Shown here: positions 7,712-57,473 of the stretch, piece by piece
Numbering within the stretch: position 1 is the first letter of the stretch
Layout of the letters: every line of letters begins with the position of its first letter
Source of the DNA: an uncultured delta proteobacterium
Lineage (GTDB): Bacteria; Desulfobacterota; Binatia; DP-6
Assembly (NCBI GenBank): GCA_963746505.1
Contig: CAVVBN010000014.1
Location: forward strand, 72,823-136,822
Reading direction: 5' to 3'
DNA length: 64,000 bases
The notes under the pieces: model-generated
The model's input: only the letters and a program-made list of their open reading frames with translations
Database searches by the model: none
What the model was told of the DNA's origin: nothing
Translations under genes and position numbers: made by a program

Positions 7712-7724
7712 GCGCTGCGTCAGC

Positions 7725-8855: not shown

Positions 8856-8897
8856 GACCGTGTGTCATACGAATCGGGGGGGATGTCCAATCGGCGC

Positions 8898-31562: not shown

Positions 31563-31789
31563 GCGAGACGCGGATGACCTCGTATCGGCAACTACGTGTT
31601 CCATCGGCTCGAGTCCTTCTCGGTGGCGAGCAGCCGCATCTGGGGGCTGCCCGGTGGATCATTCCGGCGAAAGTTGACGTAGACTCGCTGCTTGTCGGCG
31701 AGGGAAGGCGCTGCCGCCCAGCATGCCAGGACGAGGTCATTAGCGTGCTGCTCCTCCATGGCGAGGATGCCGAAGACCCGGCGCGGCAC

Positions 31790-34386: not shown

Positions 34387-34852
34387 ATACTTGTGGTTCT
34401 GGCACGCGATGAAGCAGGGACCGAGGTAAACCCCGAAATCGGACGTTAGCCCCCTGCTTCCCGCTACCCCCCAGCTCGCGCGGAATCCGTTTGGGGGGTC
34501 GGTCCCCCCCTTTTCGCACTTCGTAACTGCTCGGCGTTCCACAGAGGCCTCAGTCCGTCGCGCTTCGCTTCCGGTCTGCATCTGGCCTGTCGTGCCCAGC
34601 AACTCGCACGTACAGCGCAACTCGGAGTGGAGGTCGCCGACAGGCTTGCCGTCGATGTGGAAGAGGATCTCAAAGTCTTCGCCCAACCGCGCGGCCGTGA
34701 GAAGCTGCGGGCGCGGCCTTCCCGACATCGCGAACTCGAGCGCTGCCAGAGCACAGCGACTCTAGCATCAGCGCCGTGGCACCATTCCTGCTGTCCCAAT
34801 CTGCATCAGCCGCAGACCGCTGGCGCGGTGGCGGAGCGGCGGGAGTTTTCAC

Positions 34853-39239: not shown

Positions 39240-39516
39240 CCCGTCGGTGCCGCCCGACCGGGTCGTGCGATCCTTCGCCGAGGTTCATTGAACCTCGGCG
39301 AACGACGGCTGTACGTGATGCGGGCGGATGGCACCGACCGCTACCTCGACTCGTTCCCGGTCGCGGTCGGTCGCAGGGAAGTGACGTCGTCAGGCTCTAC
39401 GACCGCGTCCGAGTCGGTACGACGGTGATCGTGGAACCGTAACGCGGGGCTTCACAATGCTCCGCCTCTGGTGTAGCCCTACGAACGCGTCGGCTTCACA
39501 CGAAGGAGATTCAAAG

Positions 39517-40782
39517 ATGGTTCAGGCGCGTGCTCGAAGGATTCCTTGGTTCACCTCTGCCCTCGCCCTCACGGTCGCGCTCGGCGGGACCGGTTGGGCT
39601 GCCCGCACCGGGACGGCGCTCGTCCCGACGGATGCGGCACCGCCCCACGCGCGCGGTCGCGCGCAGGTGGTTGTTCCCCCGGGACGGGGCGGGAGCAAGC
39701 TCCTCGTCCTCGTCCACGGCCTGCCGGCGCGCGAACGCTTCGAGATCACGGCCGACGGTGTGCGGATCGGCTCCCTGCAGACCACGCGCGGAGGCAACGG
39801 TCTGGCTCTCTTCTCCAGTCGCACCTCGACCCGCGGTCGGCTCCGCCCGCGACTTCTCGGATTCGATCCGCGCGGTGTCAGCCTCGCCGTCGTGAATGCG
39901 AACGGCGAGGAGATCCTGGTGGGCAAGCTGCCCGGAGGATCCTCCGACCGGATCGCGTGCTGTATCACGAAGAACGAGGAGTCGGAGTGTGCGCGCGTCA
40001 CCGCCGCGCTGTGTGCGTCGGTCGGCGGCACCGCAACCGAGCAGTCCTCCTGCGTTCCCGACCCCTGTGCGCCGCCGCCGGGCGACGTCGTCTGCTGTCT
40101 ACCCGGCAGCGCCGAGGGCGCCGTGGTCGATGGCACGATCCACTGCGACGCCAACCTGGCGCCGGCCGCGTGTGTCCATGCCGGCGGAACGCTCATCCAC
40201 GCGACGTCGTGCACCCCGAACCCGTGTGAGCCGCTACCACCCCCGGAGAGGGCGCGCTGCTGTCTCCCCGACGGCGACGGTGCCGTCTGTGAGGATCGCC
40301 AGCCGCTGGACTGCGTCCACGCCGGCGGCAAGCCGATCCGCGCCGAGTCCTGTGACCCGAACCCGTGCCCGCCCGTTCAGGGCGCGTGCTGTCTCCCGTC
40401 GAGCGCCGAGTGCGCCTTTCTCGATCGCCACCGTCCGAGCACGTGCCAGGATGGGCTCACACCCGACGCCTGCACCTCCGCCGGTGGCAGCTTCGTGAGG
40501 GAAGCGGCATGCAGCGATCATCCCTGCGTCGCGCCCCCGCCGGTGCTGGTTGCGTGCTGCGTGCCGGAGGACGGCGACGAGACGGAGTGCAAGCTGACGA
40601 CCGCCCAGCGCTGCGCGGGGGTCCATGGGACCGTGAGCGACGCCACCTCGTGCAGACCGGATCCGTGCGAGCAGGGCGACGATGACGAGGACGGTCACGG
40701 GCACGGCGACGGTGGCAAAGGTGGCAACAAGGACCACGGAAACGGCCACGGCGACCACGGTTGGCCGCCGTGGAAGCGGTAG
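39517..40782 (+). CDS. Secreted cysteine-rich repeat protein with a His/Gly/Asp-rich C-terminal tail
   Basis: Signal peptide. N-terminal beta-rich region followed by five copies of a 45-55 aa module (CC-x6-12-C-x5-8-C-x3-GG-x6-8-C-x-P/D-x-PC). The tail reads DDDEDGHGHGDGGKGGNKDHGNGHGDHG. Confidence 0.6.
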   Translation: MVQARARRIPWFTSALALTVALGGTGWAARTGTALVPTDAAPPHARGRAQVVVPPGRGGSKLLVLVHGLPARERFEITADGVRIGSLQTTRGGNGLALFSSRTSTRGRLRPRLLGFDPRGVSLAVVNANGEEILVGKLPGGSSDRIACCITKNEESECARVTAALCASVGGTATEQSSCVPDPCAPPPGDVVCCLPGSAEGAVVDGTIHCDANLAPAACVHAGGTLIHATSCTPNPCEPLPPPERARCCLPDGDGAVCEDRQPLDCVHAGGKPIRAESCDPNPCPPVQGACCLPSSAECAFLDRHRPSTCQDGLTPDACTSAGGSFVREAACSDHPCVAPPPVLVACCVPEDGDETECKLTTAQRCAGVHGTVSDATSCRPDPCEQGDDDEDGHGHGDGGKGGNKDHGNGHGDHGWPPWKR

Positions 40783-40842: not shown

Positions 40843-41655
40843 TCAGTCGGCGCTGCAGACGTTCCAGTCGTCGGCAACGCCGGCGTTGTACACCAGGCTG
40901 TGATCGCAGGTGGTGTTCGTGAGCTTGGGCGGGCGCTGCGACTGGATGTCGGCGATCGCATTCCCGGTGACGGTGGAATCCTTCAGCACCACACGTTTCC
41001 CAGCGACCCCGACGGTCGAACCCGTCGCGGTGAGCCGGGTGATCTCCACCTTGCGGTCCCCGAGCACGCCATAGCTGCAGCCCGACACCGTGACGTCGTT
41101 GCCACGAACACCGGCACTGCGCTGGGTTGCGCCGATGCATTCGGACGGCTGGGCGTCGGTGAGGGTGACCGTCACGTGGTCGAGGACCGCCCGGCTGATC
41201 GGGTAGATGCCGAAGTGGCCAGCCTGGATGGAGACGTTCGTGAGGAAGACCTTGCCGTAGGCCACCTCGATGCCCGTCACGACGTTGTCGATGGTCAGAT
41301 CCGTCGCTGCGAGCCGCCCGCGGCTGTCGAGACCGATCGCGAGGCCGCCGCCACCGGTGATCCGGCCGTTGTTGACGGAGCACCGCGAGGCGCAGTGTAC
41401 GACGCCGAATATCTGCGGACCCACCTGAAGGGTCACGGTGTGCCCACCGAGATCGAGCTGAGCGCGCGGGCCGAGGTCGATACCGTGGTAGGGATGGGTT
41501 GCACCGCCCTGATTGCATGTGAAGTCGGCCGTGACGACACCCACCTGGCCCTCAGGCACCTCCGCCGGACAGCTCGAGATGTCGACCGCGGCCGCAAGAC
41601 GAGCCCCGAACACGAGCGGGATGATCACTGACGTAAGCCGAATCGCTGCGCGCAT
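40843..41655 (-). CDS. Secreted beta-helix-like protein, paralog A (of 53574-54383)
   Basis: Signal peptide. Shares the ...DISSCP...ADFTC... start and the C-terminal TTCDHS...VCSAD with the 53574 gene. Confidence 0.6.
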   Translation of the reverse strand: MRAAIRLTSVIIPLVFGARLAAAVDISSCPAEVPEGQVGVVTADFTCNQGGATHPYHGIDLGPRAQLDLGGHTVTLQVGPQIFGVVHCASRCSVNNGRITGGGGLAIGLDSRGRLAATDLTIDNVVTGIEVAYGKVFLTNVSIQAGHFGIYPISRAVLDHVTVTLTDAQPSECIGATQRSAGVRGNDVTVSGCSYGVLGDRKVEITRLTATGSTVGVAGKRVVLKDSTVTGNAIADIQSQRPPKLTNTTCDHSLVYNAGVADDWNVCSAD

Positions 41656-41837
41656 CGTGATTCCCCCCTGTCGGTCGCTGGTACCACCCCCTAGCGGCCG
41701 TCGACAAGCGCAAACATCGCTCGGGTATGCGGACCGAGTTCCAATGCCGAGACCCGCCCGCGACGGCGGCCCCGCAAGGGGAGTCACTGCTCTCCAGGTG
41801 AGGACCTGCGGGCAAAGATGTTACGACAGTCGACGAA

Positions 41838-43031: not shown

Positions 43032-44321
43032 ATGCTCGGTCTTCCCGCGCTGCTTGCGGCCGGCCTCATGCTGACGTGGGGTGGCTCGGTCGCTCGCGCC
43101 GACCATACCGTTTTCGACTACGCGGTCGAACGGTTCGAGGCCGACGGCAACATCTTCGGGTCCGCCGACGGGGTGTTCGACCTGATCGACGAATTCGACG
43201 ACGGCATCCTTGGCCCGACCTTCGGGCACCTCTTCGGCACCACGATCGAGCAGAACGGGGCGATGCATCTCAAGAACCCCGGTACCCACTTCTCGCTCAA
43301 CTTCCCCTGGACGCTCGATCAGAGCGACGTCAACAGCACGAGCCAGCTCGTGCGGGAGGGACACGGCGCCGGAGTCTACCGAACCATCTGGGTGCCGACG
43401 GCAATCGGGGTCAACCACTATCTCCACATGACCTTCTGGGCCGGGACCGACGTCGTCGGGATCGCCCTCACGAATTTCGACGAGACGATCACCAACCTCT
43501 ACGATCCGCCCGATCCAAGTGCGATCGGTCTCCGGATGACCGCCCATCACGAGCGCTTCGAGAACTTCGCCTTGACCAACGTCTCGCTCGAGCACCACCC
43601 CATCGATGCAGTCCCCGGGGCCATCGTCTTCGAGCTGCGTTTCGACGACACGACACGCACGGTGAGCGTCGGGTTCAGCGTCGACGGGGGCGCGACCTTC
43701 GATCGCGGCTTCGCGCCGATGCCGATCGGGTTCGCGCCCGGCAGCCAGGCCGGTGCCACGATCCTCGTCGGCGCCGACCCGTACGAAGCCAACGCCGCCC
43801 CGCCCCCGCCCGAGTGCCCGCTCACCTTCTTCCTCGACCAGGCGACGATCAAGAACGGCGGCGGCCCGGCGGGCAAGGGTGCCCTGACGCTCCATGGGGC
43901 GATCGGGAACGACCTCCTCGATCCGCTGAATCAGGGCATGACGCTGCTGCTCGTCGACATGGGCGCGGGCGGCGGGGAGCCGGCGTGGACGGTCGCGATC
44001 CCGCCCGGCGGGCCGGGAAGCGGGTGCGATCCCCGCGACGGCTGGCGGTCGGGATCGCGGGGCCGGGCCAGCTACCGGAACGTGTCGGGCGCGTTCCCGC
44101 CCGGATGTGCACCGGGAACGGCCGGGGGGCTGGTGAAGGCCAAGACCAAGGCCGCGGCCTCGGACGTGAGGGTCATGGTCAAGCGCGCAACGCTCCCGTC
44201 GCTGGTCGGACCGCTGGTCGTCGGTTACGTGAACCCCGCGGCGGCGGCGGGTCAGTGCGGCAACTGGCTCTCCGCGCCCACGGCCTGCGTCTCGAGCGGG
44301 TACAAGCTGCGCTGTCGGTAG
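43032..44321 (+). CDS. Secreted hypothetical protein, uncharacterised family X, paralog A (of 56184-57473)
   Basis: Signal peptide. N-terminus HTVFDYAVERFEADGN is almost identical in the paralog. Conserved INHYLHM, CDPRDG and a C-terminal Cys pattern. Confidence 0.6.
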   Translation: MLGLPALLAAGLMLTWGGSVARADHTVFDYAVERFEADGNIFGSADGVFDLIDEFDDGILGPTFGHLFGTTIEQNGAMHLKNPGTHFSLNFPWTLDQSDVNSTSQLVREGHGAGVYRTIWVPTAIGVNHYLHMTFWAGTDVVGIALTNFDETITNLYDPPDPSAIGLRMTAHHERFENFALTNVSLEHHPIDAVPGAIVFELRFDDTTRTVSVGFSVDGGATFDRGFAPMPIGFAPGSQAGATILVGADPYEANAAPPPPECPLTFFLDQATIKNGGGPAGKGALTLHGAIGNDLLDPLNQGMTLLLVDMGAGGGEPAWTVAIPPGGPGSGCDPRDGWRSGSRGRASYRNVSGAFPPGCAPGTAGGLVKAKTKAAASDVRVMVKRATLPSLVGPLVVGYVNPAAAAGQCGNWLSAPTACVSSGYKLRCR

Positions 44322-44325
44322 GCGG

Positions 44326-44577
44326 CTAGGCGCCCCATTCGGCGTGGACTGCGGCCTTGAGGGCCGAGACCACCGCCTCGAGCTCCGCGACGCTGCTCGG
44401 GTCGCGCCAATTCCAGAGATCGAGCGCCCGCCGCAACAGATCGCTCCAGAGGACATCCGCCGGCGATTCGCTTCCGGGGCGCGGCAGGCTGGCCAGATAC
44501 GGCATGATATCGACGACTTGCGCTGCTGGCCGATCGGCCGATCGGGGGGATTCCAGGGCGACGAGTGGAGACTTCAT
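44326..44577 (-). CDS. Small hypothetical protein
   Basis: ORF only, 83 aa, no motifs. Confidence 0.25.
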   Translation of the reverse strand: MKSPLVALESPRSADRPAAQVVDIMPYLASLPRPGSESPADVLWSDLLRRALDLWNWRDPSSVAELEAVVSALKAAVHAEWGA

Positions 44578-44660
44578 ATCGTTTCGAAGTCATACGCCCG
44601 CCCAGTCACCTGCGGTCAATGCCGTATTGTTCCCGATGCCACTACGGGAAACTCCGGTAG

Positions 44661-45302
44661 CTAGTCGTCGACCTCGACGAGCAGCTTGAAGTGTATCAAC
44701 TCGGCCACGGAATGGACTCCCAGCTTGCGCATGAGCGCCGCCCGGTATGTCTCGACAGTCTTGGATGCCAACCCGAGCTCCGCCGCGATCCACTTGTTTG
44801 GTCTTCCGGCCGTGACGAACCGGAGCACTTGCCGTTCGCGCCGGCTCAGAAGATCGAACAGCGCTCTGGCTGCCCGGCGGCGGGCATCCGCCGCCCGCAT
44901 CTGCTGGTCGAGCTCGATCGCCTGGTGGACTCGATCGAGCAGGAGTTGCTCCTCGACCGGCTTTTCCATCACGTCGAGCGCGCCGGACCTCATGGCACGC
45001 ACCGCGGTACGGACGTCGCCGAAGCCCGTCACCACGATCACCGGCATGCTAGACTGGCGGTTTCGCAGGTTCGCCAGAAGGTCGAGGCCGCCCATGCCGG
45101 GAAGCCGGACGTCGAGCACCAGGCAGCCTGGGCGGTCTGGCCCGCAGCCCTCCAGGAATTCCCGCGCGCTGCCGTATGCCTCCACGGCAAGACCGACCGA
45201 CTGCAGCAGCCAGGTGAGCGAGTCCCGGATGCCCGTGTCGTCGTCGACGACGAATACCGTGGCCGGAACGTCGCCCGGGTTCTGCTCTAGCAAGCTGGTC
45301 AT
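44661..45302 (-). CDS. Response regulator, FixJ/NarL (LuxR-type HTH) family
   Basis: Receiver domain (VFVVDDD, LVLDVRLPGM, K in EKP) plus a LuxR-type HTH (ETYRAALMRKLGV). Confidence 0.9.
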   Translation of the reverse strand: MTSLLEQNPGDVPATVFVVDDDTGIRDSLTWLLQSVGLAVEAYGSAREFLEGCGPDRPGCLVLDVRLPGMGGLDLLANLRNRQSSMPVIVVTGFGDVRTAVRAMRSGALDVMEKPVEEQLLLDRVHQAIELDQQMRAADARRRAARALFDLLSRRERQVLRFVTAGRPNKWIAAELGLASKTVETYRAALMRKLGVHSVAELIHFKLLVEVDD

Positions 45303-45362
45303 CCGTACCGCTCCGATCGATCGAGGGATAGCCGGCGCTCGGACGGACCGTCAAGGATCGCC

Positions 45363-46730
45363 ATGAGGGTGGCCCCCCTGGCCGCTCTGGTTTGCCCCGG
45401 TCGCCCCCCACCGTGCTATGCGACCCCCATGAAAGCACCGGACACCGGGGCGCACGCCTCGCCTCCGGGCGGGGCCGCCGAGCTCGTCGAGTCGGTGCTG
45501 GGTCCGCAACCTGACGACCTGCAGGCGCTGCTCGACTCGGTTCCGGCGTTCATCTGGTACAAGGACCGGAACAACCGCATTCTCCGCGCGAACAGGCTGG
45601 CGGCGGAGTCGATGGGGATGCGGGTCGAGGAGATCGAGGGGCGCTCGACCTACGATCTCTATCCGGACGAGGCGGCGCAGTATCATGAGGCCGATCTCGA
45701 GGTCATCGGCTCGGGGCAGCCGAAACTGGGGATCGTCGAGACGATGCGCACCGCCTCGGGGGAGAAGCGCTGGGTACGCACCGACAAGATTCCCTACCGC
45801 AATCCGCAGGGAGAGGTCGTCGGTCTGATCGTCTTCGCGATCGACATCTCCGAGCGGATATCTGCCGAGGAGGCCTTGCGGCGCACGCACGAGGACCTCG
45901 AGCGGCGCGTCGACGAGCGGACGCGACAGCTCGCGGCGGCGGTGGACATTCTCAACGCGGAGATGACCGAGCGCCAGCGAGCCGAGCAGCGCGTCCACGA
46001 GCAGCAGGCCGAGCTGGCGCACGTGCTGCGCCTGCATACGCTCGAGAGCATGGCCGCCAACCTGGCGCACGAGATCAACCAGCCCTTGTCGGCGATCGTC
46101 AACTTCGCCTCCGGGCTCGGGCGCTGGCTCGAGGCCGGCGAGCTCGACGTCGAAACGGCCCGGCAGGTCGTCGATCGGATCAGCCGCGAGGCACTGCGTG
46201 CCGCCGAGGTCGTGCGGCGCCTCCGCGCCTCGGTGCGCAAGGAGGCGCCCAAGAGGGAGCTCTGCGACCTGCGGCCCGTTCTGGGCGCCGCGGCGTCGCT
46301 CATTACCGCCGAGGCCAAGGCCGCGGGGGTGGCGCTGCATCTGGATCTCGATTCGTCGCTCCCGGACGTCGAGATCGACCGCGTGCAGATCGAGCAGGTC
46401 GTGCTGAACCTGCTGCGCAACGCGCTCGAGGCGGTGTCCGAGGGTACGCGCGGGACGCACGCGATCCATCTGGAGGCCGTGGCGAGGGCCGACGGCGGCT
46501 GCGAGGTGCGGGTCCGCGACGATGGCCCGGGGCTCCCGGGGGGCGACCTGACGAAACTGCTGGAGCCGTTCTTCACCACCAAGCCGCAGGGGCTGGGCAT
46601 GGGGCTTCCGATCAGCCGACGGATCGTCGAGGCGCACGGCGGCAGCCTGCGAGGGTTCACGAACGCCGAGGGCGGTGCGACACTCGCGTTCACGCTCCCG
46701 GCGCCCCGTCCCAGAGCGAGCGCGGGCTGA
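45363..46730 (+). CDS. PAS-domain sensor histidine kinase (FixL-like)
   Basis: PAS fold followed by an H-box (ANLAHEINQPLSAI) and HATPase N/G1/G2 boxes (NLLRNALEA, DDGPGLP, GLGMGL). Divergent from the response regulator gene. Confidence 0.85.
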   Translation: MRVAPLAALVCPGRPPPCYATPMKAPDTGAHASPPGGAAELVESVLGPQPDDLQALLDSVPAFIWYKDRNNRILRANRLAAESMGMRVEEIEGRSTYDLYPDEAAQYHEADLEVIGSGQPKLGIVETMRTASGEKRWVRTDKIPYRNPQGEVVGLIVFAIDISERISAEEALRRTHEDLERRVDERTRQLAAAVDILNAEMTERQRAEQRVHEQQAELAHVLRLHTLESMAANLAHEINQPLSAIVNFASGLGRWLEAGELDVETARQVVDRISREALRAAEVVRRLRASVRKEAPKRELCDLRPVLGAAASLITAEAKAAGVALHLDLDSSLPDVEIDRVQIEQVVLNLLRNALEAVSEGTRGTHAIHLEAVARADGGCEVRVRDDGPGLPGGDLTKLLEPFFTTKPQGLGMGLPISRRIVEAHGGSLRGFTNAEGGATLAFTLPAPRPRASAG

Positions 46731-46798
46731 CGGCTTCCGCGGTCGGCGCCTCCGCGTGGCCGAGGGACCCCGCTGGAGACCGGCGCTGACGAGGGGCG

Positions 46799-47440
46799 TC
46801 ACGGGATCGTCGTCGTGGTGCTCGTCGACGTCGAGGAGGTGGTCGACGTCGTCGAGGTCGTTGACGACGTCGTGGTGGTCTTCGGTGGCTTCGGCAGCGG
46901 GCACCGTTCGACCGTGAAGGTGACCGGCGGCGTCACGACGTCGATGATCCCGACGCGCCGGCGCAACCTGCGGAGCGCTCGCGCGCAGAGCGCCGCACGC
47001 CGTGAGGGCGCGACGCCGAGCGTCGCCAGCCGGGCATCGGAGCAGATCGTGAGGGAGAGGGTGCAGGCGATCGGCTCCTCGTGCCGCGCCACGTCCGAGA
47101 GCTGCAGCGTTCGCGTCCCGACGAAGCCTCCCAGCGCCGATGCCGGGGACAAGGCCACGCCGGCGTAGAACGGCACCTGGTCGGACTCGGTGGGTCTGAT
47201 CTCCCGCGTGCGGAAGCGCAGCGCCTGCCGGATCGCCCTGCGTTTCTGGTCGCTCACGGATGCTGGCGCCCCGATCGGGAGCTGCAGGCTGTACTTCAGG
47301 CCGATCTGCACGCGATGGAGCTGCTCGGCGCGGTCCGTGCACGTCACCTTGAGCGAACACGTCACGACGAGGTGCGCCGGAAAGCGTGCCTCGGCCGGCA
47401 CCCCACCGCCGGAGGCGAGCAGCGCAGCCATCGAGACGGC
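46799..47440 (-). CDS. Secreted hypothetical protein with a Thr/Ser-rich C-terminal tail
   Basis: Hydrophobic N-terminus. The tail is TTTTSSTTSTTSTTSSTSTSTTTT. The start is uncertain (47440-47560). Confidence 0.45.
   Translation of the reverse strand, partial: AVSMAALLASGGGVPAEARFPAHLVVTCSLKVTCTDRAEQLHRVQIGLKYSLQLPIGAPASVSDQKRRAIRQALRFRTREIRPTESDQVPFYAGVALSPASALGGFVGTRTLQLSDVARHEEPIACTLSLTICSDARLATLGVAPSRRAALCARALRRLRRRVGIIDVVTPPVTFTVERCPLPKPPKTTTTSSTTSTTSTTSSTSTSTTTTIP
46800..46880 (-). repeat. Low-complexity codon-repeat (ACG/TCG/ACC) tract encoding the poly-Thr/Ser tail
   Basis: Visible in sequence as gtcgtcgacgtcgaggaggtggtcgacgtcgtcgaggtcgttgacgacgtcgtggtggtc. Confidence 0.6.
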
Positions 47441-47552
47441 AGCCGTGCGCAGCACGCTTGCCGGGCTACGTCCCACGCCATTCACGGTGCCATGCCACCG
47501 CGCCACGAGCAACGTCGCGAGTCTCCGCGTCCCGTCCAGCGCAGGAGTGCAG

Positions 47553-48610
47553 CTATGCAACGCGCCGCAGCTCTTCCGCCAGCTTCCTCGCCGCCTCCAG
47601 CATCGCCGCCCGGCTCGACGGGCTGATCGACGTCATGTTGCAGAAGCCATGGACCAGCCCGGCATGGCGCCGCAGCCACGTGCGCACGCCCGCGTCCTCG
47701 AGGCGGCGGGCATACGCCTCGCCCTCGTCGCGCAGCGGATCGAAGCCGGCGGTGAGGACGAGCGCGGGCGGGAGCCCCGAGAGGTCGGGTGCGAGCAGTG
47801 GCGAGGCGCGGGGATCGCGCGCGGCGTCGGCGTCCCGGAGATAATGGCCGATGTACCAATCCATCTCACCCGCCGTGAGGAAGAAGCCCTCGGAAAAGAG
47901 CCGATACGAGCAGGAGCGGTTGGCGAGATCGGTGACCGGGTAGATCAGCATCTGCGCCGTGGGACGCGGCCCACCGTCGCGCGTCGTCACCAGCGAGACG
48001 ACCGCCGACAGGTTGCCGCCCGCGCTGTCGCCCGCGACGGCGACGCGCCGGGCATCGAAGCCCAGGGTACTGGCCTCGCACGCAGCCCAACGAAAGGCCG
48101 CGACGGCGTCGTCGACCGCGGCGGGAAACCTGTGCTCCGGCGCCAGGCGATAGTCGATCGACAGCACGCCGGCGTCGACCTCGCGCGCGAGGAAGCGGCA
48201 GACACCGTCGTGCGTATCGAGATCGCCGACGACCCAACCACCGCCGTGGTAGTAGACGATGAGCGGGCGCACGCGCCGCTCGGCCGAGGGGACGTAGAGC
48301 CGCGCCCGCAACGAGCCTGCGGGCCCCGGGATCTCGAGCGACTCGACGCTTGCCACCGCCTCGGCGAGCCCCGCCGCGAGCGCAGCCGTACGGCGGATGT
48401 CGGCGCGCGCTTCGAGCGGCGTCATGGTGTCGAGGGCGCGATGGCCCAGCAGGGTCGCGAGCCGCAGGATCAGCTGGATGTCGGCGTCCAGCTCGGCATC
48501 ATCGAGTCGCACCGTCCCGCCGCCGGAGAGGAGGCGGAGTACACCGGGCGGCAACCAGTCGAGTGCGGCCGCGACCCCCCACCCGAGCAAGGCGAGCAGG
48601 CGGTTCTTCA
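47553..48610 (-). CDS. Alpha/beta hydrolase, HSL-family carboxylesterase/lipase
   Basis: HGGGW oxyanion motif, GDSAGGNL nucleophile elbow and a signal peptide. Alternative start at 48650. Confidence 0.85.
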
Positions 48611-48729
48611 TGTCGAGCGGCGCTCTACACCGAGCCGGCTCCGCTGTCATGCCAGCCCGCTGCCGGCCGGCCGATTGACGGCTCGCCGGCCGCGGGACTA
48701 CGGTTCAGCCAGTGCACATCCCCCGCTTC

Positions 48730-49101
48730 ATGCGGAGCGTGAACCGCGTCTTCACGAACCCCGTGATGGGAACGATCGCGTGGATCGTGCCGCCGCTGGC
48801 AGTCGTGCACCACGTGGGGCGAAAGAGCGGCAAGCCCTATCGCTCGCCGGTGATCGCGATCGCGAGCGAGCATGGCTTCGTGATTCCGATGACGTACGGG
48901 CGGGACGTCGACTGGGCGCGGAATCTGCTGCACGGCCGTGGCGGCGAGCTGGAGCGGATGGGGCGGCGGGTGACGGTGCGGAATCCGAGGATCGTGGGGC
49001 TGGACGAGGCCCGGCCGCATCTTCCGGCGCCGGCGCGGGCGTTCTTCGGAATGATGAACTTCCCGGGCTTCGTGCTGCTCGACGCGTCGAGCGCGCGCTA
49101 G
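48730..49101 (+). CDS. Deazaflavin-dependent nitroreductase-family protein (DUF385), second copy
   Basis: NRVFTNPVM...HHVGRKSGKPYRSPV...ASEHGFVIPMTYG matches the DUF385 pattern. Confidence 0.6.
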   Translation: MRSVNRVFTNPVMGTIAWIVPPLAVVHHVGRKSGKPYRSPVIAIASEHGFVIPMTYGRDVDWARNLLHGRGGELERMGRRVTVRNPRIVGLDEARPHLPAPARAFFGMMNFPGFVLLDASSAR

Positions 49102-49230
49102 TCGTCCCCGGGGGCCACCGTTCAGCGTGGGCACGTCGCGTCGGCGCAGGATGCTGCCCAGCTGGGATATCCCGGCCCTGGGGAGATGGTCGTTGGATGG
49201 ATGCGGATGAAGGCGCTCGCCGAATCGCCG

Positions 49231-50649
49231 TCAGCGTGCCGTCACGATGGTCCGCACGGGCAGGCGGCGCGCGCGCCCGCAGGCGCGCGCGTATCCGTTG
49301 CGGCACGCCTGGGCATACAACTGATGCGCACCGGCGACGTCGCCGTCGTCCTCTCGGAGTTGCGCCAGCACGTCGCACCCCCCCGGGTCGCCAGCCGCGC
49401 ACGATCGGGTTGCGAAGCGGAGCGCGCTGGCACCGCTGCGCTCGTCGTTGGCGTACATCCGGGCGAGCGTGTGGCAGTCGTATGCGGACCACCCGTCGCA
49501 GCTACCATCCAGCAGTGCCACGGCCTGCGCGTGCAACCGCTCGACCTGCTGGGGGGTGCACTGCGCGCGCGGACCCGGATAGGACAGGTGGTCGGTGCAC
49601 AGCTCGGCGAGGTGCGCGCAGGCGTGCCCGTCATCTCCATCGCAGGCGGCGCGCGCCAGGTTCGCGGATCGTGCCACGCTGCGCCGCGACCCCTCGTCGT
49701 CGAGATACAGCTCGGCGAGCGCGCCGCACCCGAACGCGTCGCCACCGGTGCAGGCCTTCGAGAGGAGGCTCCAGGCCTTGGTGGTGTCGCGGGCGACCCC
49801 GCGTCCGTCCCGATACAGGAGACCCGCCCGCGCGCAGCTGCCCGTCTCGCCGCGACTGCAGCGCCGCATGCAATCGGCGGCGTCGTAGGGCCGGCAGCGC
49901 GACCGCGCAACCCGCAACCGCCGACCGGTCGGTGGCGTGGCGTCCTCATGGTCGGGCGGCAGCGGGAACGCGCGCAGCGACGCAGCGAGCTCCGTGTACA
50001 GGTCGCCGACCCAGGATGGAGGCCGCCGCAGCCGCGCGAGCGCCGCCCGCGGCTCGACCCGCCGGAGGTCGAGCGGGCTGATGATCATCTCCACGTGCTC
50101 GGTGCCGATGCGACTCGTGAGGACGAACAGCTCCTCGATGGCGTCGTCGCCGACCGGAAGACAGCCATCGGAGACGGCGTCGCCGTGGACCATGATGTCA
50201 CCGCCGAGCGCCGCCCGGCCGTCGTCCCGGGCGCGGAGCTGGTCGACCGCGTTGGGATAGTCGACGCGCAGGGACAAGTGGTAGCGGCTGTTCGGGTTCA
50301 GGGCCGCGATACGGTACACGCCCTCGGGAACCTGATGGTCGCCCTGGCGGAGCTTCGGCCCGAGCTGCCCGCTGGCCGCGAGCACCAGATAGGAACGGAC
50401 GAAGCGCCACCCGGCGCCGCCGTCGGCCCACAGCTCGAGCCGTCCCTCGTCCTTGAGGGCGACGAGCGCCATCGCCTGTGGCGGGTAGACGCCGGCGCGC
50501 GCGGCGATGAGGGGGGCGATTCGCTGCTCGGCCTCGCGGAGCGCCGCAGGCGATACGGCTGCTCGCGCCGGTCCCGCGACCAGGCCCACGACGCACATCA
50601 TCAACGCCAAGCGACGCACTCGACGAATTCCTCTCCCCCGCCCCGCCAT
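49231..50649 (-). CDS. L,D-transpeptidase catalytic (YkuD) domain fused to Cys-rich Sel1-like repeats
   Basis: Signal peptide. YkuD-like HQVPEGVY...IMVHGDAVSDGCLPV. Four C-terminal repeats of A-x-x-AC-x-GGD-x-x-GC-x-x-LA-x-LY. Alternative start at 50601. Confidence 0.55.
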   Translation of the reverse strand: MAGRGRGIRRVRRLALMMCVVGLVAGPARAAVSPAALREAEQRIAPLIAARAGVYPPQAMALVALKDEGRLELWADGGAGWRFVRSYLVLAASGQLGPKLRQGDHQVPEGVYRIAALNPNSRYHLSLRVDYPNAVDQLRARDDGRAALGGDIMVHGDAVSDGCLPVGDDAIEELFVLTSRIGTEHVEMIISPLDLRRVEPRAALARLRRPPSWVGDLYTELAASLRAFPLPPDHEDATPPTGRRLRVARSRCRPYDAADCMRRCSRGETGSCARAGLLYRDGRGVARDTTKAWSLLSKACTGGDAFGCGALAELYLDDEGSRRSVARSANLARAACDGDDGHACAHLAELCTDHLSYPGPRAQCTPQQVERLHAQAVALLDGSCDGWSAYDCHTLARMYANDERSGASALRFATRSCAAGDPGGCDVLAQLREDDGDVAGAHQLYAQACRNGYARACGRARRLPVRTIVTAR

Positions 50650-50762
50650 CCCCGCCGTGCCCGGAGCCAGCGCCCGTCGGGTACCCTGATCCGGGGCATC
50701 GGTCAACCGAAACCCCTTGGACGCGAAGCTCCCGGGGGTACCCTCGGCGGTGTAGAAGGTCG

Positions 50763-51449
50763 ATGAGCCCACGACACATGGCAGCCTCGACGACGCGGCG
50801 CGGATTGCTCATCGGGATGACCCTCCTGCAGGTGGTCGTCACGCTCGCGCTGACCGCGCTCGGCTGGGGCGGTTGGACCGCACTCGTCGCGAACCCAGCG
50901 CGCGCCGCCTTCGTCATCGTCGTCGTCGTGATGACGCTGGTCGCGCTCGCCTCGCCCGTGAACATGAGCAGCGGCGAGCGCGAGGACGTCGGCAACCGGC
51001 GCATCTTCGCACCCACGGTCGCGGGCGTGCTGCTCCTCACCTGGCTCATGCCGTTCATGGACCGGCGCGACCTCTGGACTTTCGACGGCGACGCGGTCCG
51101 GTGGGCCGGCGTCGTCCTCCTCGTCGGCGGCGGCGTGCTCCGCATCTGGCCGATGTTCGTGCTCGGGCGGCGCTTCAGCGGGCTCGTGGCCATCCAGCCG
51201 GGGCACGAGCTCGAGACCGGCGGGCCCTACCGCTACATCCGGCACCCGAGCTACCTCGGCATGATGCTCGGGTTCGTCGGCTGGATCCTCGTGTTCCGCA
51301 GCAGCGTCGGTCTGGTCGCGATCGCGCTCGGGCTCCCGCTGCTCCTCGACCGGATCGAATCGGAGGAGGCGCTCCTCGCCTCGCACTTCGGGACTGCGTA
51401 CGCCGACTACCGCCGGCGGACGTGGCGGCTGCTGCCTGGCCTCTACTGA
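50763..51449 (+). CDS. Isoprenylcysteine carboxyl methyltransferase (ICMT)-family membrane methyltransferase
   Basis: Multi-TM protein with the C-terminal LETGGPYRYIRHPSYLG...RIESEEALLASHFG signature. Confidence 0.8.
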   Translation: MSPRHMAASTTRRGLLIGMTLLQVVVTLALTALGWGGWTALVANPARAAFVIVVVVMTLVALASPVNMSSGEREDVGNRRIFAPTVAGVLLLTWLMPFMDRRDLWTFDGDAVRWAGVVLLVGGGVLRIWPMFVLGRRFSGLVAIQPGHELETGGPYRYIRHPSYLGMMLGFVGWILVFRSSVGLVAIALGLPLLLDRIESEEALLASHFGTAYADYRRRTWRLLPGLY

Positions 51450-51577
51450 GATGTACCGGCGAGGCTCCGTCGGGATTCCCGACGCGCCAAGGACGAACGG
51501 CGACGCCAGCGGCTTTCGATGCCGGCACCCACTGCCTCCAGCGCCTCATCCCTGAGACTCGTCGCCCACTGCGAACG

Positions 51578-52434
51578 TTACCTGGTCGCGTGCGGCCCTC
51601 CCTGAATTGCGGATCGAAGATCGCCGAGCGCGTCCAGACACGCCCGCGTCGCGGTCCGTTTCTCGTGAATCGAGACATCGACCGACTTCACGTTCGTGTT
51701 CAACCGGGAGAGCCGGATCACCTCTGCCGCGACTCGCTGGTATTCGGCCCACGCCTGCGTCCCATCGGCCACAGCGCCCGCAGCCGGGGATGGGACCGAC
51801 GGACCTGCTTCCCGGAGGGCCGCGTCGACCGTCTCGCCGAGGCGGCGAATGCGCGCTTCAAGCGTCGTCATCTCGGCATCCGACGCCTCGGGTATGTGTA
51901 CGAGCAGCAGGGACTGAATCCGCGCAATCGCGGTGGCAGCCGTCGCGAGCGAGCGGACGACCGCGACGTCTGTACACGCCAGCATCATGGCATCGACCGA
52001 CGTGATGAACCGGTCGAATGCGACCGAGCCTTCCTGCACCAAGAGATGTGCGGCCTTCAGATTGGTGTTGGCGACGGCAAGGTCGAGCAACCGCGCATCG
52101 ATCGCCTTGAGTTCATCCCACTTCGCGGCGAACGCGGCCAGCTTCTCGACTTCGTCTCGACGCGCATCCGCATTGATCAGCTCGGCGAGGCGCGTCATCG
52201 AGTGGCCGATCTCCTCTGAAGAACGCTTCGATCGCGCCGCGAACTCGGCCGATTCCTCGTCCGTCATGGCGAGGACGGCGCTCTTCTCGGCCTCCACGGA
52301 CTCGAGGAGGCGGTGCTGGATGTTGTTGACCAACTCCAGCTTCTCCACCTGCCGCAGAAGCGCTGGCCGACCGCACGCACCAATCCATACGACGGCGATC
52401 GAGAGAATTGCGATGCGTCTGGAGATTCGCATGA
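51578..52434 (-). CDS. Lipoprotein with a four-helix-bundle (4HB_MCP-like) coiled-coil domain
   Basis: Signal peptide with lipobox IGAC. Mostly helical heptad-like sequence. Confidence 0.5.
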
Positions 52435-53107
52435 CTCGCTCAGGAGAGGCCGATGGCTCTTTGACACAGCGCGTGTGCGAAACACAACTGAACATCAGCA
52501 GATGCATGCCCGTGCGCCGCGATCGTCGGCTGTCATCTTCGTCACCGCAGCTGACGGCCGTACCATCACGATCCAGAGCGTGCAGTTCATCTTCGACACA
52601 GAACGCTGGCCGCGTCGTCGCTCGAGATCGGCCAATGGACCGCGTACGGCCTCCCGAGGGGTCGGCGACAAACGGAACGCCCGCCCTCGGACCCTGCGCC
52701 CTGCAGTCGGGCGTGGACAGCGCCATCATCCCGGGCGGGAGCATGAGCATCAGCCCGTAGAGGAACCACCCGACCAGCAGACCCGCCGGCCAGACGCCGC
52801 AGGATGAACCCCACGAGCCGACCGGACGCGTAACAGGCCCAGACCTCGCGCACCCAGTTCAGCCGGACCAGGGGGAACTTGGGCGGGATCTCGCCGTGGA
52901 GCAGTCCCGTCAACGTCCAGGCGAGTGGACAAAAGTGGCTGGGACCGGACTACGGATATATCGAGTTGATCCGTCTTGCTCCTCCACGCCAAGTGGATGG
53001 CCCGTTTCCCTGCGTTTTCCGAGGAGAGCCGTATGGCACCGCTCCTGCAACGAGAAAGGTGCAACGGCATGCGGGAAAACGAAACCATGCCGGAGAGGGG
53101 AAACGAT

Positions 53108-53366
53108 CATGGTACCGACGATTCGCGAGGCAGGACCGACGGGTGCAACGAAGCACGCGGCCGCTCGGGTTGGGGAGCGGGTCATCCCGTGCCGTCCGGC
53201 CCCAGCGGACGGGCGCGCCGAGCCGTGGGGTGGCTGGCGCCAAGGATGGGGCATGGTCGCAGCGACGGCGATCCTGGGAGTCATGCTCGTCGTCATCATT
53301 CGCCACGCTTCGTCGGCGCTTCTGGTTGCCACCCCATTGTCGTTCGTCCCACCCTACGCCATGTAG
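53108..53366 (+). CDS. Small protein with a C-terminal TM helix (hypothetical)
   Basis: ATG has a GAGAGGGGAAAC RBS. 86 aa. Confidence 0.3.
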
Positions 53367-53573
53367 GGACGCGGGCATCCGGCCCAACGCACCAGGAAGG
53401 CCATGGTCGGCTCGATGCTCGTATGCCTCGTTCCGCGGCGAGAGGGGGACGACTCAAATTGAGTCCTCATGCAGCGGACATCTCCGGTGTCTACGATACG
53501 GCGAGCATTTTCCGTTGACAGACGGGTAGATTCCGCCATACGGTCTCGCGACACGGTCGATGGGGAGGGCCTC

Positions 53574-54383
53574 GTGAAGACCACGATCGTCGCGGCTGTG
53601 CTCGTAATGCTGTGTCCGGAGGCCCGCGCGCTCGACATCACGTCGTGCGGGCAGGTGGTCCCGGATGGCGAGACCGGGATTCTTCAGGCCGACCTCGTCT
53701 GCCCACCCGCACCTCCGGGCCCGCCGTACTTCGCGGTGCAGCTGAATCGCGGGGCGACGCTGGAGATGAACGGCCACTCGATCACCGGTCAGCAACTGGG
53801 CGTCTTCTGCTTCGGCGACTGCACGGTGCGCGGCCCGGGCGAGATCACCGGTGCGAGCTCGAACGCGATCGGTGCGCCGATCGGCATACGCGTCGACGTG
53901 TCAGACCTCGACATCCACGACAACCACGGCATCATGGACGTCGCTGGCTCGAAGCTGACCCTCGCCAACATCACCGCGTCGCACAATGCCTACGGGATCC
54001 GCGCCGCCAGCCTGAAGGCGACCAACGTCACGATCAACGACAACGCCGGCGATGCGTTGCTCGTCCAGAAGCGACTCATCGCCACGGACGTCACCGTCAC
54101 GAATACCGGAGAAGGCGGCATCTCGACGTTGGGATCGATCCGCGCCACCCGCCTCGTCGTGTCCGGGGCCGCGGGCGTGGGACTGTTCTCGCGCGGTCGC
54201 GCCAAGCTCATGGATTCGAGCGTGACCGGCAGCGGGTTCCTGGCGCTCGACCTGGTCACGGGTCGTAAGCCTCGGCTGCTCGGCACATCGACATGCGGTC
54301 ACAGCGCGGGGCTGGTGAAGGATCCGGCGAACCCGGGGATGCTCCTCATCGGACCGACCTGGGGTGTGTGCGCGAGCGACTGA
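53574..54383 (+). CDS. Secreted beta-helix-like protein, paralog B (of 40843-41655)
   Basis: GTG at 53574 has a GGGGAGGG RBS. Signal peptide and the shared motifs DITSCG...ADLVC and STCGHS...VCASD. Confidence 0.6.
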   Translation: MKTTIVAAVLVMLCPEARALDITSCGQVVPDGETGILQADLVCPPAPPGPPYFAVQLNRGATLEMNGHSITGQQLGVFCFGDCTVRGPGEITGASSNAIGAPIGIRVDVSDLDIHDNHGIMDVAGSKLTLANITASHNAYGIRAASLKATNVTINDNAGDALLVQKRLIATDVTVTNTGEGGISTLGSIRATRLVVSGAAGVGLFSRGRAKLMDSSVTGSGFLALDLVTGRKPRLLGTSTCGHSAGLVKDPANPGMLLIGPTWGVCASD

Positions 54384-54573
54384 CGCGCCCGGCCTGCGTT
54401 CACCCGCGGGATCGTCTCTCGCGCCCCCCAGCGAACCCGGGAATCGCCCGGTGAGGCTCTCGGTTCCCGACGGGCACAGTCGGCGCACAGGAGAGCATGA
54501 TTTCGATCGTCGCGATGTGACGGCCTGAAACTGCTTGACAGCGGCGCGCCCCGACGCGCATGCGTCGGGGTGA

Positions 54574-56164
54574 GGGGGGATCCATGAGAATCGCAGGTCG
54601 CACGGACCAGCGGCGTGGTCACACCGCGCTCGTCGCGGCCATCGTGCTGGCACTCGAGTCTCACCCGGCTGGCGCACTGGACGTCACCGGCAGGTGGAGG
54701 CTGAGCGCCGGCGGGAGCGAGCAGATCGCGGACTTCGTCCAGTCCGGAACGAGCCTCCAGATCACTGCTTTCGAGGGCACTACGTTGACCGGCACCATCG
54801 GCCCCGACGGCGCCTTCACGGTGAATGTGTTTCTTCCCGGGTGCGAGGGCGGCCTCGGGGGGCGGGTCGTCGGCGAGACGCGGCTCGCGGGGACGTCGGC
54901 CGCCCTCTGCCCGACCCTCTCGGAGGCGCTCATCAGCGGCATCCGCTGTGAGTGCTTCGACGACAACGCGACGAACGGCGACGGCTGCGACTCGCGCTGT
55001 CAGATCGAGCCGTGCTTCACGTGCGCGGGATCGCCATCGCTCTGCGTGCCGTCCGGCGACGGTGCGACGTGCGATGACCGGAGCGCCTGCACCAGCGGCG
55101 AGACGTGCTCCGCGGGCGTGTGCGGCGGTGGAAGCCCGGTCAGCCCGTGCATCAACCTCGGCGGGCAGTGGCTCGAGCATGTGTCGGTCCCGACACTCGG
55201 CGTCGAGGAGGACGCCATCGTCGACGTCGCGCAGGTCGGGAGCATCCTCGAGTTCGGTGGATCGCCGGCGAGCCTGCCGCTCACCTTCGGGACGATCGAC
55301 CCGGCCACGGGTGCCATGACGCAGGCCACCGGCGTCGGGGTGTTCCTCTGCCCGGGAGCGACCGTCTTGGGGGGGACGACAGCCCCGGATGGCAACACGT
55401 ATACGCTGTCAGGTCTCCGCTACGCACTCGACCTCGACGAATGCGAGAGCTACCCGGCGACCGTCACCGGTACCCGATGCGTGGGCCCGTGTGTGCTCCC
55501 GACGTCCACGACCAGCACCACCACGAGCACCAGCACGACGACGACCACCGCCCCGCAGCTCCTGTCGGGAAAGCGGCTCGTCCTGAAGAATCACGCCGAT
55601 CCGACCCGTCGGAGGCTCACGCTCGATTCCAGGGACGCCGGTCTGTCGATCGGTGGCGGCAACGGCTCGCCCGACGATCCGACCGTCGCCGGGGCGACGT
55701 TGCGCCTGCGGACAGCACCCGCCTGCGTTGGCGCGTGCGATGCGATCTACGGCCTGCCGGCCGCAGGCTGGCGGCTCCTCGGCGAGCCCGGTGAGAACAA
55801 GGGATATCGGTATGTCGACCGGCGGCTGGCCGCCGGACCCGTGAAGCGGGTGACGGTGAGGCCCGGGAAGGCGCTGACGGTCGTCGCCACGGGCGCGCAG
55901 CTCGCGCACCCGCTCGCAGAAAACCCCGAGCCGGTCGACGTCGTGCTGGAACTCGGCGATCAGCGGTCATGCCTGAGGTTCGGAGGCACCACGCGATTCA
56001 GGCCGGGGCGGACGTTTCGGGCGAGCAACGCGCAGGCGCCGGGCACGTGTTCAGGGGTCCCGAGAGGGCGGGCACCACAAGTACCCGTCCGTAGAGTGCG
56101 CCCGGAGGGAATCGAACCCCCGACCGCCTCCCGGGCTGGCGCGGCCGCCCCCGTTCAGGCGTAG
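54574..56164 (+). CDS. Secreted protein with a myxococcus cysteine-rich repeat and a Thr-rich linker
   Basis: Signal peptide. CECFDDNATNGDGCDSRCQIE matches the myxococcus Cys-rich repeat pattern. PTSTTSTTTSTSTTTTT linker. The C-terminal domain resembles that of the 34853 protein. The last 25 codons are encoded by the tRNA-like repeat. Confidence 0.6.
56100..56125 (-). repeat. 26-bp tRNA-like (T-arm plus 3' acceptor) element, copy 2
   Basis: Identical to 32977-33002 in the same orientation. It lies inside the 3' end of the 54574 ORF and is flanked by a GCGCAC-GGTTC-GTGCGC hairpin at 56161-56177. Confidence 0.6.
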
Positions 56165-56183
56165 CGCACGAACCGTGCGCGGG

Positions 56184-57473
56184 TCACTTGCACTTGGCCT
56201 TGCGCGCGTTTCCGACGCAGGTCATCTGCCCGACGTACCCGTCGCACTCGTTCGTCGGTCCACCGGGCTTGTAGAGCCCGACCCGCAGCGGCCCGACGAC
56301 GGATGGGACCGTCGCGCCATTCGCCTTGATCTTCACCTTGGCCGTCCCGTTCCATCCGAGCTCGAGCAGCCGCAGGCCGTGGGCCGAGCCAGGGATGCAG
56401 TCCGGGGGAAGCGCGTCGGAGTAGTTCACGTAGCGCCGACGGCCACCACGAGGGACGTATCCGTCGCGAGGGTCGCAAGCCTTTTGGTAGGCGGTCGCGC
56501 CATCCGGGACCGTCACGTCGAACACCGGCGCACCGCCCGCTCCCTCGTCGGTCACGAGCAGGCGGAGCCCGTCGAGCCCATAGACGAGATTCGAGCCGCT
56601 TGCCGCGGTCCCCTTCAGGGTGAACCGCTCGTCGCCCGCCGGCGGCTCGAGCTTGCTGAACACCGCCAGGGTCGGGAAGAACTCGCCCGGGCACGCCCCG
56701 TCACGCGGGTCGGCGCCCAGGTAGAGCCCGGCCGTCCCCTGGGACAGGGAGACGGGGATCGGCGCGAAGGGCGCCGCGAACGTGGCCCCGCCATCCAGGC
56801 TGTAGGTCACCGTGATCTCGCGGCGTGTGTCGTCGTAGCGCAGCTCGAAGACGAGGAGGCCGGTGATCGCCGCGGGATCGATCACCTGGTGGTCCTGGCG
56901 GTCGAGGTGGCCCGTCACGTCCATGTGCGCGTCGTGCGCGGTCATCACGTAGCCGGTGGGCCAGGGCGGATTGTAGAGGTCCCCGAGCGCCTGGTTGTAG
57001 TTCGTGAGCACGAGACCAGCGAAGTGCCACCCGTCGGGGCCGATCCATTCGAGGCTCATGTGGAGGTAGTGGTTGATGCCGAGCGGCTGAGGGCGCCAGT
57101 AGGAGCGCAGGACCAGGTCACCGGCCCCGGCCTGGAGGAAGCCGGCCGGGTCGCCCTTGTGCACCTCGCTCACCTCGAAGGACACGGGGGACAACCCGAG
57201 AACGGTGATGCCGAAGCCCGGATCCTTGAGATGCAGTGCACCGTCGCTCTCGACCGCGGTGCCCGGACCGACGCCCCACTCGGGCAGGCCGAGCACGCCG
57301 TCGTCGAACTCGTCGACGACGTCCGGGATGCCATCCTGCAGGCCGTGCACGTTGCCGTCGGCCTCGAAGCGCTCGACCGCGTAGTCGAACACGTGTCCGC
57401 GCGCGCCCGCCGTGCCCCCGGCACACATCACCGCGGCGGCAGCGATGGCCAACGTCCATGATCGCGCTCGCAT
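56184..57473 (-). CDS. Secreted hypothetical protein, uncharacterised family X, paralog B
   Basis: ATG at 57473 has a GGAGGGG RBS. Signal peptide. HVFDYAVERFEADGN, INHYLHM, CDPRDG. Confidence 0.6.
   Translation of the reverse strand: MRARSWTLAIAAAAVMCAGGTAGARGHVFDYAVERFEADGNVHGLQDGIPDVVDEFDDGVLGLPEWGVGPGTAVESDGALHLKDPGFGITVLGLSPVSFEVSEVHKGDPAGFLQAGAGDLVLRSYWRPQPLGINHYLHMSLEWIGPDGWHFAGLVLTNYNQALGDLYNPPWPTGYVMTAHDAHMDVTGHLDRQDHQVIDPAAITGLLVFELRYDDTRREITVTYSLDGGATFAAPFAPIPVSLSQGTAGLYLGADPRDGACPGEFFPTLAVFSKLEPPAGDERFTLKGTAASGSNLVYGLDGLRLLVTDEGAGGAPVFDVTVPDGATAYQKACDPRDGYVPRGGRRRYVNYSDALPPDCIPGSAHGLRLLELGWNGTAKVKIKANGATVPSVVGPLRVGLYKPGGPTNECDGYVGQMTCVGNARKAKCK

Follow-up and report, generated by a model that had tools for sequence, protein, structure and literature searches.

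The question raised by this locus, a stretch of 64,000 nucleotides from an uncultured delta proteobacterium (hereafter the window, from whose first letter all positions are counted), is what two similar proteins encoded in it, P1 and P2, are and what they do. An initial annotation, made from the sequence alone, had described both as secreted members of a novel family without a known domain, either enzymes or binding proteins, and had proposed a metal site. P1 and P2 belong to a family that is real, sizeable, and unannotated and that lies inside a familiar fold class. The reading favored here, at a probability of roughly 0.45, is that they are exported, non-catalytic, probably Ca2+-stabilized glycan- or surface-binding proteins, composed of an acidic N-terminal domain (N-domain) and a basic C-terminal domain (C-domain).

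The P1 coding sequence occupies positions 43032-44321 of the forward strand and that of P2 positions 56184-57473 of the reverse strand; each encodes 429 amino acids plus a stop and translates without internal stops. The GC content at third codon positions (GC3) is 0.86 for P1 and 0.82 for P2, a coding-type composition that supports both open reading frames (ORFs). GC content is uniformly high throughout the window (0.65-0.73) and therefore gives rise to long spurious ORFs in all frames; the forward-strand reading of 56184-57473 is such an ORF, rich in Arg and Ala, and was rejected in favor of the reverse-strand gene. The exact P1 protein is present in public data as P0001, and the exact P2 protein as P0158 on the same contig as P0001. 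P1 and P2 align end to end over 429 columns with about 41% identity (BLASTP, E=2e-85), a likeness far beyond chance, and by this measure are paralogs, as had been proposed. The P1 orthologs P0002 and P0003 are 69-71% identical to P1, and the P2 ortholog P0005 is 75% identical to P2; since each copy is closer to its own orthologs (69-75%) than P1 is to P2 (about 40%), the duplication is old and both lineages are maintained. A scan of all six frames of the window with the family profile found no third copy. The two genes are about 12 kb apart on opposite strands with unrelated genes between them, so that 43032-57473 is not a single feature, as it had first been marked. All of the motifs quoted in the initial annotation are present in the two sequences: HTVFDYAVERFEADGN / HVFDYAVERFEADGN, DEFDDG, NHYLHM, VFELR(F/Y)DDT, S(V/L)DGGATF, CDPRDG, PP(G/D)C, and VGPL(V/R)VG. 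Three spaced cysteines had been reported near the C-terminus, but the mature proteins carry six each, at C262, C332, C359, C409, C419, and C428 in P1 and at 261, 333, 359, 410, 419, and 428 in P2.

Both proteins begin with a hydrophobic leader that, by inspection, has the form of a signal peptide, in agreement with the earlier view that they are secreted. The putative P1 signal peptide (43032-43100, forward strand; residues 1-23, MLGLPALLAAGLMLTWGGSVARA) ends in A-R-A before the predicted cleavage site, while that of P2 (57399-57473, reverse strand; approximately residues 1-25, MRARSWTLAIAAAAVMCAGGTAGAR) has an uncertain cleavage position, either between AGA and RG or between ARG and H. The A-x-A site is conserved in the family, with the alanine at -1 (A23) kept in 82% of members, and a hydrophobic leader is present in 124 of 124 members with an aligned N-terminus.

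The apparent size of the family depends strongly on the sensitivity of the search. When a 10-sequence profile was run exhaustively (hmmsearch) against 1.84 billion cluster representatives, 774 passed E<=1e-3, of which 482 also passed E<=1e-10 and 110 passed E<=1e-30. A word-indexed search of 5.8 billion proteins returned nine relatives; the idea of a tiny family, suggested by this low number, was rejected as a sensitivity artefact. Every source name seen among family members is "hypothetical protein" or absent. With the 10-sequence alignment, a scan limited to a single genome for each GTDB species gave four loci: two in metagenome-assembled genomes (MAGs) of Candidatus Binatia, one in an "uncultured delta proteobacterium" MAG, and one in a Myxococcota MAG. 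P0040, a further member with a named source, likewise comes from Ca. Binatia. Judged by these nearest homologs and by its high GC content, the window itself probably derives from the Ca. Binatia/Myxococcota neighborhood. Neither P1 nor P2 has a Pfam match at E<=10, and the same is true of NCBIfam, including the choice-of-anchor models and the named sorting-domain models (type IX secretion system C-terminal domain, T9SS CTD; MYXO-CTERM). The conserved core of 56 relatives likewise had no Pfam match at E<=0.001 or E<=5, apart from weak matches to BNR (PF02012) in three relatives. A single-sequence search of PDB sequences found no match, and a profile search gave only a carbohydrate-binding module (CBM3) at E=0.86. 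With no match in Pfam, NCBIfam, or PDB sequences, no confident assignment to a known family was found, and the description of the family as novel stands.

The AlphaFold2 model of P1 (predicted local distance difference test, pLDDT, 79.6; predicted template modelling score, pTM, 0.56) has two all-beta domains joined by a Pro-rich linker of low confidence (residues 255-263). The P1 N-domain (43101-43796, forward strand; residues 24-255) comprises about 230 amino acids with an acidic isoelectric point (pI) of 4.5 and is modelled as an all-beta structure of about 14 strands; for the P2 N-domain (56694-57398, reverse strand; residues 26-260, pI 4.4), the same fold would follow from the P1 model through the full-length alignment. 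Foldseek searches of the PDB with the N-domain returned matches with probabilities of 0.95-1.00, E-values of 1.7e-3 to 1e-2, and target template modelling (TM) scores of 0.40-0.48. The enzymes among them are the glycoside hydrolase family 16 (GH16) laminarinase PtLam (8xpk), lichenases (1mac, 3i4i, 3d6e), and XTH/EG16; the others are the C-terminal sandwich of GH43 xylosidases (7jvh, 5zqj), soybean agglutinin, a legume lectin (2sba), and ERGIC-53 (1r1z). The evidence for a concanavalin-A (ConA)-like lectin/glucanase fold at class level is weak but fully consistent, in that every top match with a probability of at least 0.9 is a ConA-like lectin or glucanase and the model has the two-sheet antiparallel beta-jelly-roll of about 200-250 residues that defines the class. 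The start of the N-domain, D-x-F-D-D-G-x-L-x-P-x-W...G...E-x-G-G-x-L, seems to resemble the first strands of many ConA-like domains. The N-domain differs from these in having an additional conserved N-terminal strand (FDYxVDRFExDGN), a single Asp-box, and no GH16 motif, and it has no sequence relation to the Pfam ConA-like families, to PDB sequences, or to the Laminin_G_3 (LamG_3) protein encoded in the window. Curated ConA-like families (among them Laminin_G_1/2/3, GH16, and Lectin_leg-like, as well as DUF1080) gave no match with P1 or P2 at E<=10 or with the 56 relatives at E<=5. The statement that no known domain can be recognized is therefore correct at the level of sequence and incorrect at that of predicted structure, where the N-domain is ConA-like and SxDGGxTF is an Asp-box.

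Conservation in the N-domain, computed over 165 aligned segments, is concentrated in two blocks. The first begins with A-x-A and continues, after the cleavage site, as x-H-T-V-F-D-Y-x-V-D-R-F-E-x-D-G-N-x-x-G-P-x-D-G-x-P-D-x-V-D-E-F-D-D-G-x-L-x-P-x-W...G-T..E.G-G.L.L..P-G. The second, T-G-x-I-V-L-R-L-x-F-D-D...S-F-S-L-D-G-G-x-T-F-x-x-P-F, has the Asp-box at its end. The center of the domain (residues ~120-195), which includes the HYLHM stretch, is variable. The conserved loops (D38 G39 N40, D46 G47, D50, D53 E54 F55 D56 D57 G58, D205 D206, and D218) are of the Asp/Asn/Gly kind and look more like Ca2+ or structural sites. The Asp-box is SVDGGATF in P1 (43677-43700, forward strand; residues 216-223) and SLDGGATF in P2 (56778-56801, reverse strand), and it is highly conserved in the family (S216 99%, D218 94%, G219 94%, G220 96%, T222 82%, F223 80%). 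The segment agrees with the BNR/Asp-box consensus, S-x-D-x-G-x-T-W/F, and is conserved at 94-99% at the key positions; in sialidase-type propellers, however, the motif recurs from blade to blade, whereas the family has one inside a jelly roll. A sialidase-type beta-propeller was rejected on these grounds, with one SxDxGxTF per protein and a jelly-roll model. The SxDGGxTF segment lies between two predicted strands and is best read as a structural hairpin and not as a sign of sialidase function.

In P1 (43815-44318, forward strand; residues 262-429), the C-domain is a basic (pI 9.35) six-cysteine beta-sandwich of about 165 amino acids that ends in KLRCR; in P2 (56187-56693, reverse strand; residues 261-429), it has a pI of 8.5, six cysteines, and the end KAKCK. 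Modelled alone from 20 sequences, it forms a predicted sandwich of about ten strands, with higher confidence (pLDDT 92.2, pTM 0.85) than the complete protein. Foldseek found no significant match for it in the PDB, where the best hits were generic immunoglobulin (Ig) V-type domains (best E 0.039, TM <= 0.37), or in BFVD, a set of predicted viral structures (best E 0.077); the structure comparison recommended in the initial annotation thus yielded a fold for the N-domain of the P1 model and none for the C-domain. The likeness to Ig-like sandwiches extends to the approximate number of strands, and the only PDB or BFVD similarities, none significant, are to Ig V-type, BslA, and archaellum FlaF/FlaG-type domains. 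The six-cysteine pattern, the CDPRDGW and PPxCxPGSA motifs, and the basic charge set the C-domain apart, and no described counterpart with these features was found. Of 37 two-domain members, 28 have all six cysteines. C332 (of CDPRDG) and C359 (of PPxC) are absent together in all seven cases in which either is missing, and this joint loss suggests a mutual C332-C359 disulfide; the sandwich as a whole is proposed to be held by three disulfides. Where the end of the C-domain could be matched, it is at the extreme C-terminus of the protein (45/45), followed by no more than 12 residues in all 45 proteins and by no more than four in 43. The terminal tail, K-x-[RK]-C-x, is conserved.

The two domains also occur apart. 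Among the 157 best representatives of the 774, together with P1 and P2, 85 have an N-domain without a complete C-domain and 37 have both, the rest being fragments. Many of the members with only an N-domain are about 280 amino acids long and end in VPEP, a hydrophobic segment, and RRR; TIGR02595, the model for the PEP-CTERM anchor, scored above its cutoff in four of ten such relatives tested; P0108, P0112, P0118, and P0134 are examples of relatives with the anchor. NCBIfam matches in these ten were confined to the anchor at the C-terminal end and never involved the conserved N-domain core, so that the globular part matches no named PEP-CTERM family in NCBIfam. A word-index search with PEP-CTERM relatives as the query added six proteins, all labelled "hypothetical", and thus no further annotation, and nothing relevant was found in the literature on PEP-CTERM with concanavalin or on Binatia with PEP-CTERM. 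These shorter relatives have the architecture of PEP-CTERM/exosortase exoproteins (TIGR02595, PF07589), such as the flocculation protein PepA, and place the N-domain on the cell surface or in the exopolysaccharide (EPS) matrix of environmental Gram-negative bacteria. P1 and P2 differ from PEP-CTERM proteins in matching neither PF07589 nor TIGR02595 and in having the 165-amino acid, cysteine-containing C-domain instead. Other partners of the N-domain are TSP3 repeats, disintegrin, DUF4215 Cys-rich repeats, a long beta-helix-like repeat region, and a second N-domain. In P0153, residues 1-409 are built from "GTEFQVN...GNFVVVW" repeats, perhaps in a beta-propeller-like form, and are not similar to the N-domain; the C-domain comes after them, which makes it an independent module; the alternative combinations in general mark both domains as independent extracytoplasmic modules.

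At least four alternative C-terminal ends were seen, including PEP-CTERM, the CDPRDG C-domain, a "...CWxxxF..." variant, and a "...YCxSTxGG..." variant, and some members end in SPSGAFLD. The shared end "...SP(S/G)GAFLD" is found in P0037, P0048, P0052, P0056, and an ORF at 7443-9296 on the forward strand of locus L005, with a Ca. Binatia MAG included; it lies at the C-terminus or at most seven residues from it, has no hydrophobic helix after it, and is absent from the ORFs of the window. This motif may be an undescribed C-terminal tag. The combination of one extracytoplasmic domain with alternative C-terminal ends is similar to the "choice-of-anchor" concept of NCBIfam, although no choice-of-anchor model matches P1 or P2. 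By analogy, P1 and P2 resemble in function PEP-CTERM or "choice-of-anchor" surface proteins that bear a lectin-fold domain. At the level of fold their N-domain is assigned to the ConA-like class, and the two proteins lack the defining features of LamG, GH16, PEP-CTERM, choice-of-anchor, BNR propeller, and lytic polysaccharide monooxygenase (LPMO) proteins. The two domains carry opposite charges: every one of the 117 members measured has an N-domain pI below 5.1 (median 4.05, and 4.2 in the 29 two-domain members), while the pI of the C-domain is above 7.5 in 27 of 29 members (median 9.15). This acidic-N/basic-C charge dipole is conserved in the family.

In the favored reading, removal of the signal peptide after Sec export would leave a mature two-domain protein of about 42 kDa. 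The acidic ConA-like N-domain would serve as a non-catalytic binding module, probably stabilized by Ca2+, whose ligand would most likely be a glycan of the cell surface, the exopolysaccharide matrix, or the environment. The basic C-domain would hold P1 and P2 at an anionic surface or polymer such as lipopolysaccharide or EPS and so fill the role that the PEP-CTERM membrane anchor has in the shorter relatives. Binding is preferred over catalysis because of the lectin- or carbohydrate-binding-module-like architecture, the PEP-CTERM and adhesin-type partners, and the variable central loops. Several observations weigh against this reading. The P1 leader does not have a basic n-region; the best fold matches of the N-domain include GH16 and GH43 enzymes; the matches are weak (E ~1e-3, TM <0.5), so that the fold is assigned at class level only; and the basic charge of the C-domain is compatible with roles besides surface retention. 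The genomic context is also uninformative, with no conserved neighbor across eight homologous loci, including those of the 70%-identical orthologs.

The N-domain could instead be a catalytic member of the ConA clan, a glycoside hydrolase, transglycosylase, or polysaccharide lyase (GH16-like or PL-like), with the C-domain as an accessory or binding part. PtLam, the lichenases, and XTH/EG16 among the best fold matches agree with this, as do the near-invariant acidic residues D205, D206, D218, and E73, and genes for a GH15 glucodextranase-like protein and for glycosyltransferases lie in the window. However, the strict GH16 motif (E-[ILV]-D-[IVAF]-[VILMF]?-E) is found in none of 158 members and its loose form (E.D..?E) is absent from P1 and P2; no CAZy-type Pfam model matched any of 56 members at E<=5. 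The conserved residues are gathered at the N-terminus of the N-domain and in the Asp-box hairpin, with variable strands in the center, and lectins (2sba, ERGIC-53) and the non-catalytic GH43 C-terminal sandwiches score equally with the enzymes. The N-domain is moreover found on PEP-CTERM-anchored and adhesin-like proteins. An enzyme, one of the two options in the initial annotation, is thus the weaker one and is considered unlikely. Far less credible still is a secreted metalloenzyme with a transition-metal site formed by the His, Asp, and Glu residues of ERFEADGN, HYLHM, and DDT, as first suggested. NHYLHM is kept in P1, P2, and close relatives, and among the ten closest sequences H79 and H132 show little or no variation, but in the family at large 17% of members keep H129 and 48% keep H132. 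What is conserved is instead the set of Asp, Asn, Gly, and Ser typical of Ca2+ or structural loops, and no metalloenzyme model in Pfam or NCBIfam matched. An LPMO-type histidine brace, which requires an invariant His1 in the mature protein, was rejected since the histidine is at +2 in most members and is 60% conserved.

A different view of the same proteins is that an export or anchoring pathway, and not ligand binding by the C-domain, defines the family; the C-domain would act as a dedicated signal for sorting or secretion, functionally analogous to PEP-CTERM or the T9SS CTD, and the N-domain would be merely one of several cargo domains. The invariably terminal position of the C-domain, its occurrence behind different N-terminal regions (P0153, P0154), its replacement by PEP-CTERM in the shorter relatives, and its conserved basic charge and K-x-[RK]-C-x tail are all features that such a signal would have. 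Yet at 165 amino acids with three disulfides it is far larger than known sorting signals; no sorting-domain model of NCBIfam or Pfam matched; no sortase-, exosortase-, or secretion-type gene is conserved next to the homologous loci; and there is one clear N-terminal partner from outside the family only. A sorting signal of this kind is therefore doubtful. Of similarly low probability is the broader proposal that the C-domain is a previously unrecognized C-terminal surface-retention/sorting module of Binatia/Myxococcota-type bacteria, with the N-domain as a new "choice-of-anchor"-type cargo; this proposal draws on a C-domain that is always terminal, interchangeable with PEP-CTERM, and also found behind an unrelated N-terminal region. 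The glycan- or surface-binding reading remains the preferred one.

The neighborhoods of the family genes differ at every homologous locus, and the genes appear to be stand-alone units. Co-occurrence with metallo-beta-lactamase (MBL) hydrolases, beta-helix proteins, and choice-of-anchor proteins, which the initial annotation had offered as a check, was not seen. An MBL-fold gene lies 160 bp upstream of P1 and is absent beside the 70%-identical orthologs of P1, whose neighbors are an MBOAT gene and a DUF4215 protein at one locus (L013) and amidohydrolases at another (L012). A gene for a luciferase-like monooxygenase (PF00296) is convergent with and directly downstream of a homolog at two loci only (L001, 9337-10503, and L003, 9344-10564, both on the reverse strand); this is probably a coincidence in genomes rich in the PF00296 family. 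Between P1 and P2 in the window are genes for a LuxR-type response regulator, a PAS histidine kinase, an esterase, a YkuD-domain protein, an ICMT-like methyltransferase, a 4HB_MCP protein, a small beta-helix protein, and a 534-amino acid protein of unknown type.

P1 and P2 share the window with other secreted or surface-type proteins, in what is a loose association only. A 731-amino acid beta-helix protein (34766-36961, forward strand) matches choice-of-anchor Q (NF041518, E=1.7e-25), with a weak CSLREA match at its N-terminus; it is the sole choice-of-anchor match in the window and is unrelated to P1 and P2, as is a second right-handed beta-helix protein (53469-54383, forward strand). Neither beta-helix protein has a conserved counterpart next to the homologs of P1 and P2. 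The LamG_3 protein (26783-28105, reverse strand; 440 amino acids) has a ConA-like Laminin_G_3 domain, a Thr-rich linker, and a basic, cysteine-containing helical tail, and was rejected as a relative of P1 and P2 at the level of sequence (hhalign probability 0.1). The GH15 glucodextranase-like protein (28281-31658, reverse strand; 1125 amino acids) has N, catalytic, B, and SLH-like C-terminal binding modules, and GT2 glycosyltransferases adjoin P2. Kazal-type inhibitor domains are probably uncommon in bacteria; a 570-amino acid protein (12778-14490, forward strand) has several Kazal serine protease inhibitor domains (PF07648, PF00050). Three ORFs have no Pfam match. That at 54560-56164 (forward strand) is convergent with P2, ends 20 bp from its stop, and has a borderline match to a myxococcal Cys-rich acidic repeat (TIGR02232, 20.5 bits versus a cutoff of 20.8); that at 39457-40782 (forward strand) fails the GC3 filter and may not be a gene; and the third, also sizeable, is at 40843-41787 (reverse strand).

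Neither secreted binding proteins with a ConA-like fold nor PEP-CTERM cargo of unknown function are rare, and the findings therefore open no new mechanism and settle no long-standing question. What is new is a sizeable unannotated family together with a C-domain that has no significant structure match in the PDB or BFVD; the fold class of the N-domain is known. If the favored reading is true, then two unannotated extracytoplasmic modules have been delimited, an acidic domain with a lectin fold and a basic tail domain stapled by disulfides, which recur across hundreds of protein clusters of uncultured lineages from soil and sediment (Ca. Binatia and Myxococcota-like). A description at the level of domains could then replace "hypothetical protein" in genome annotation and would provide an entry point to the decoration of the surface or exopolysaccharide matrix in Ca. 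Binatia and Myxococcota-like organisms.

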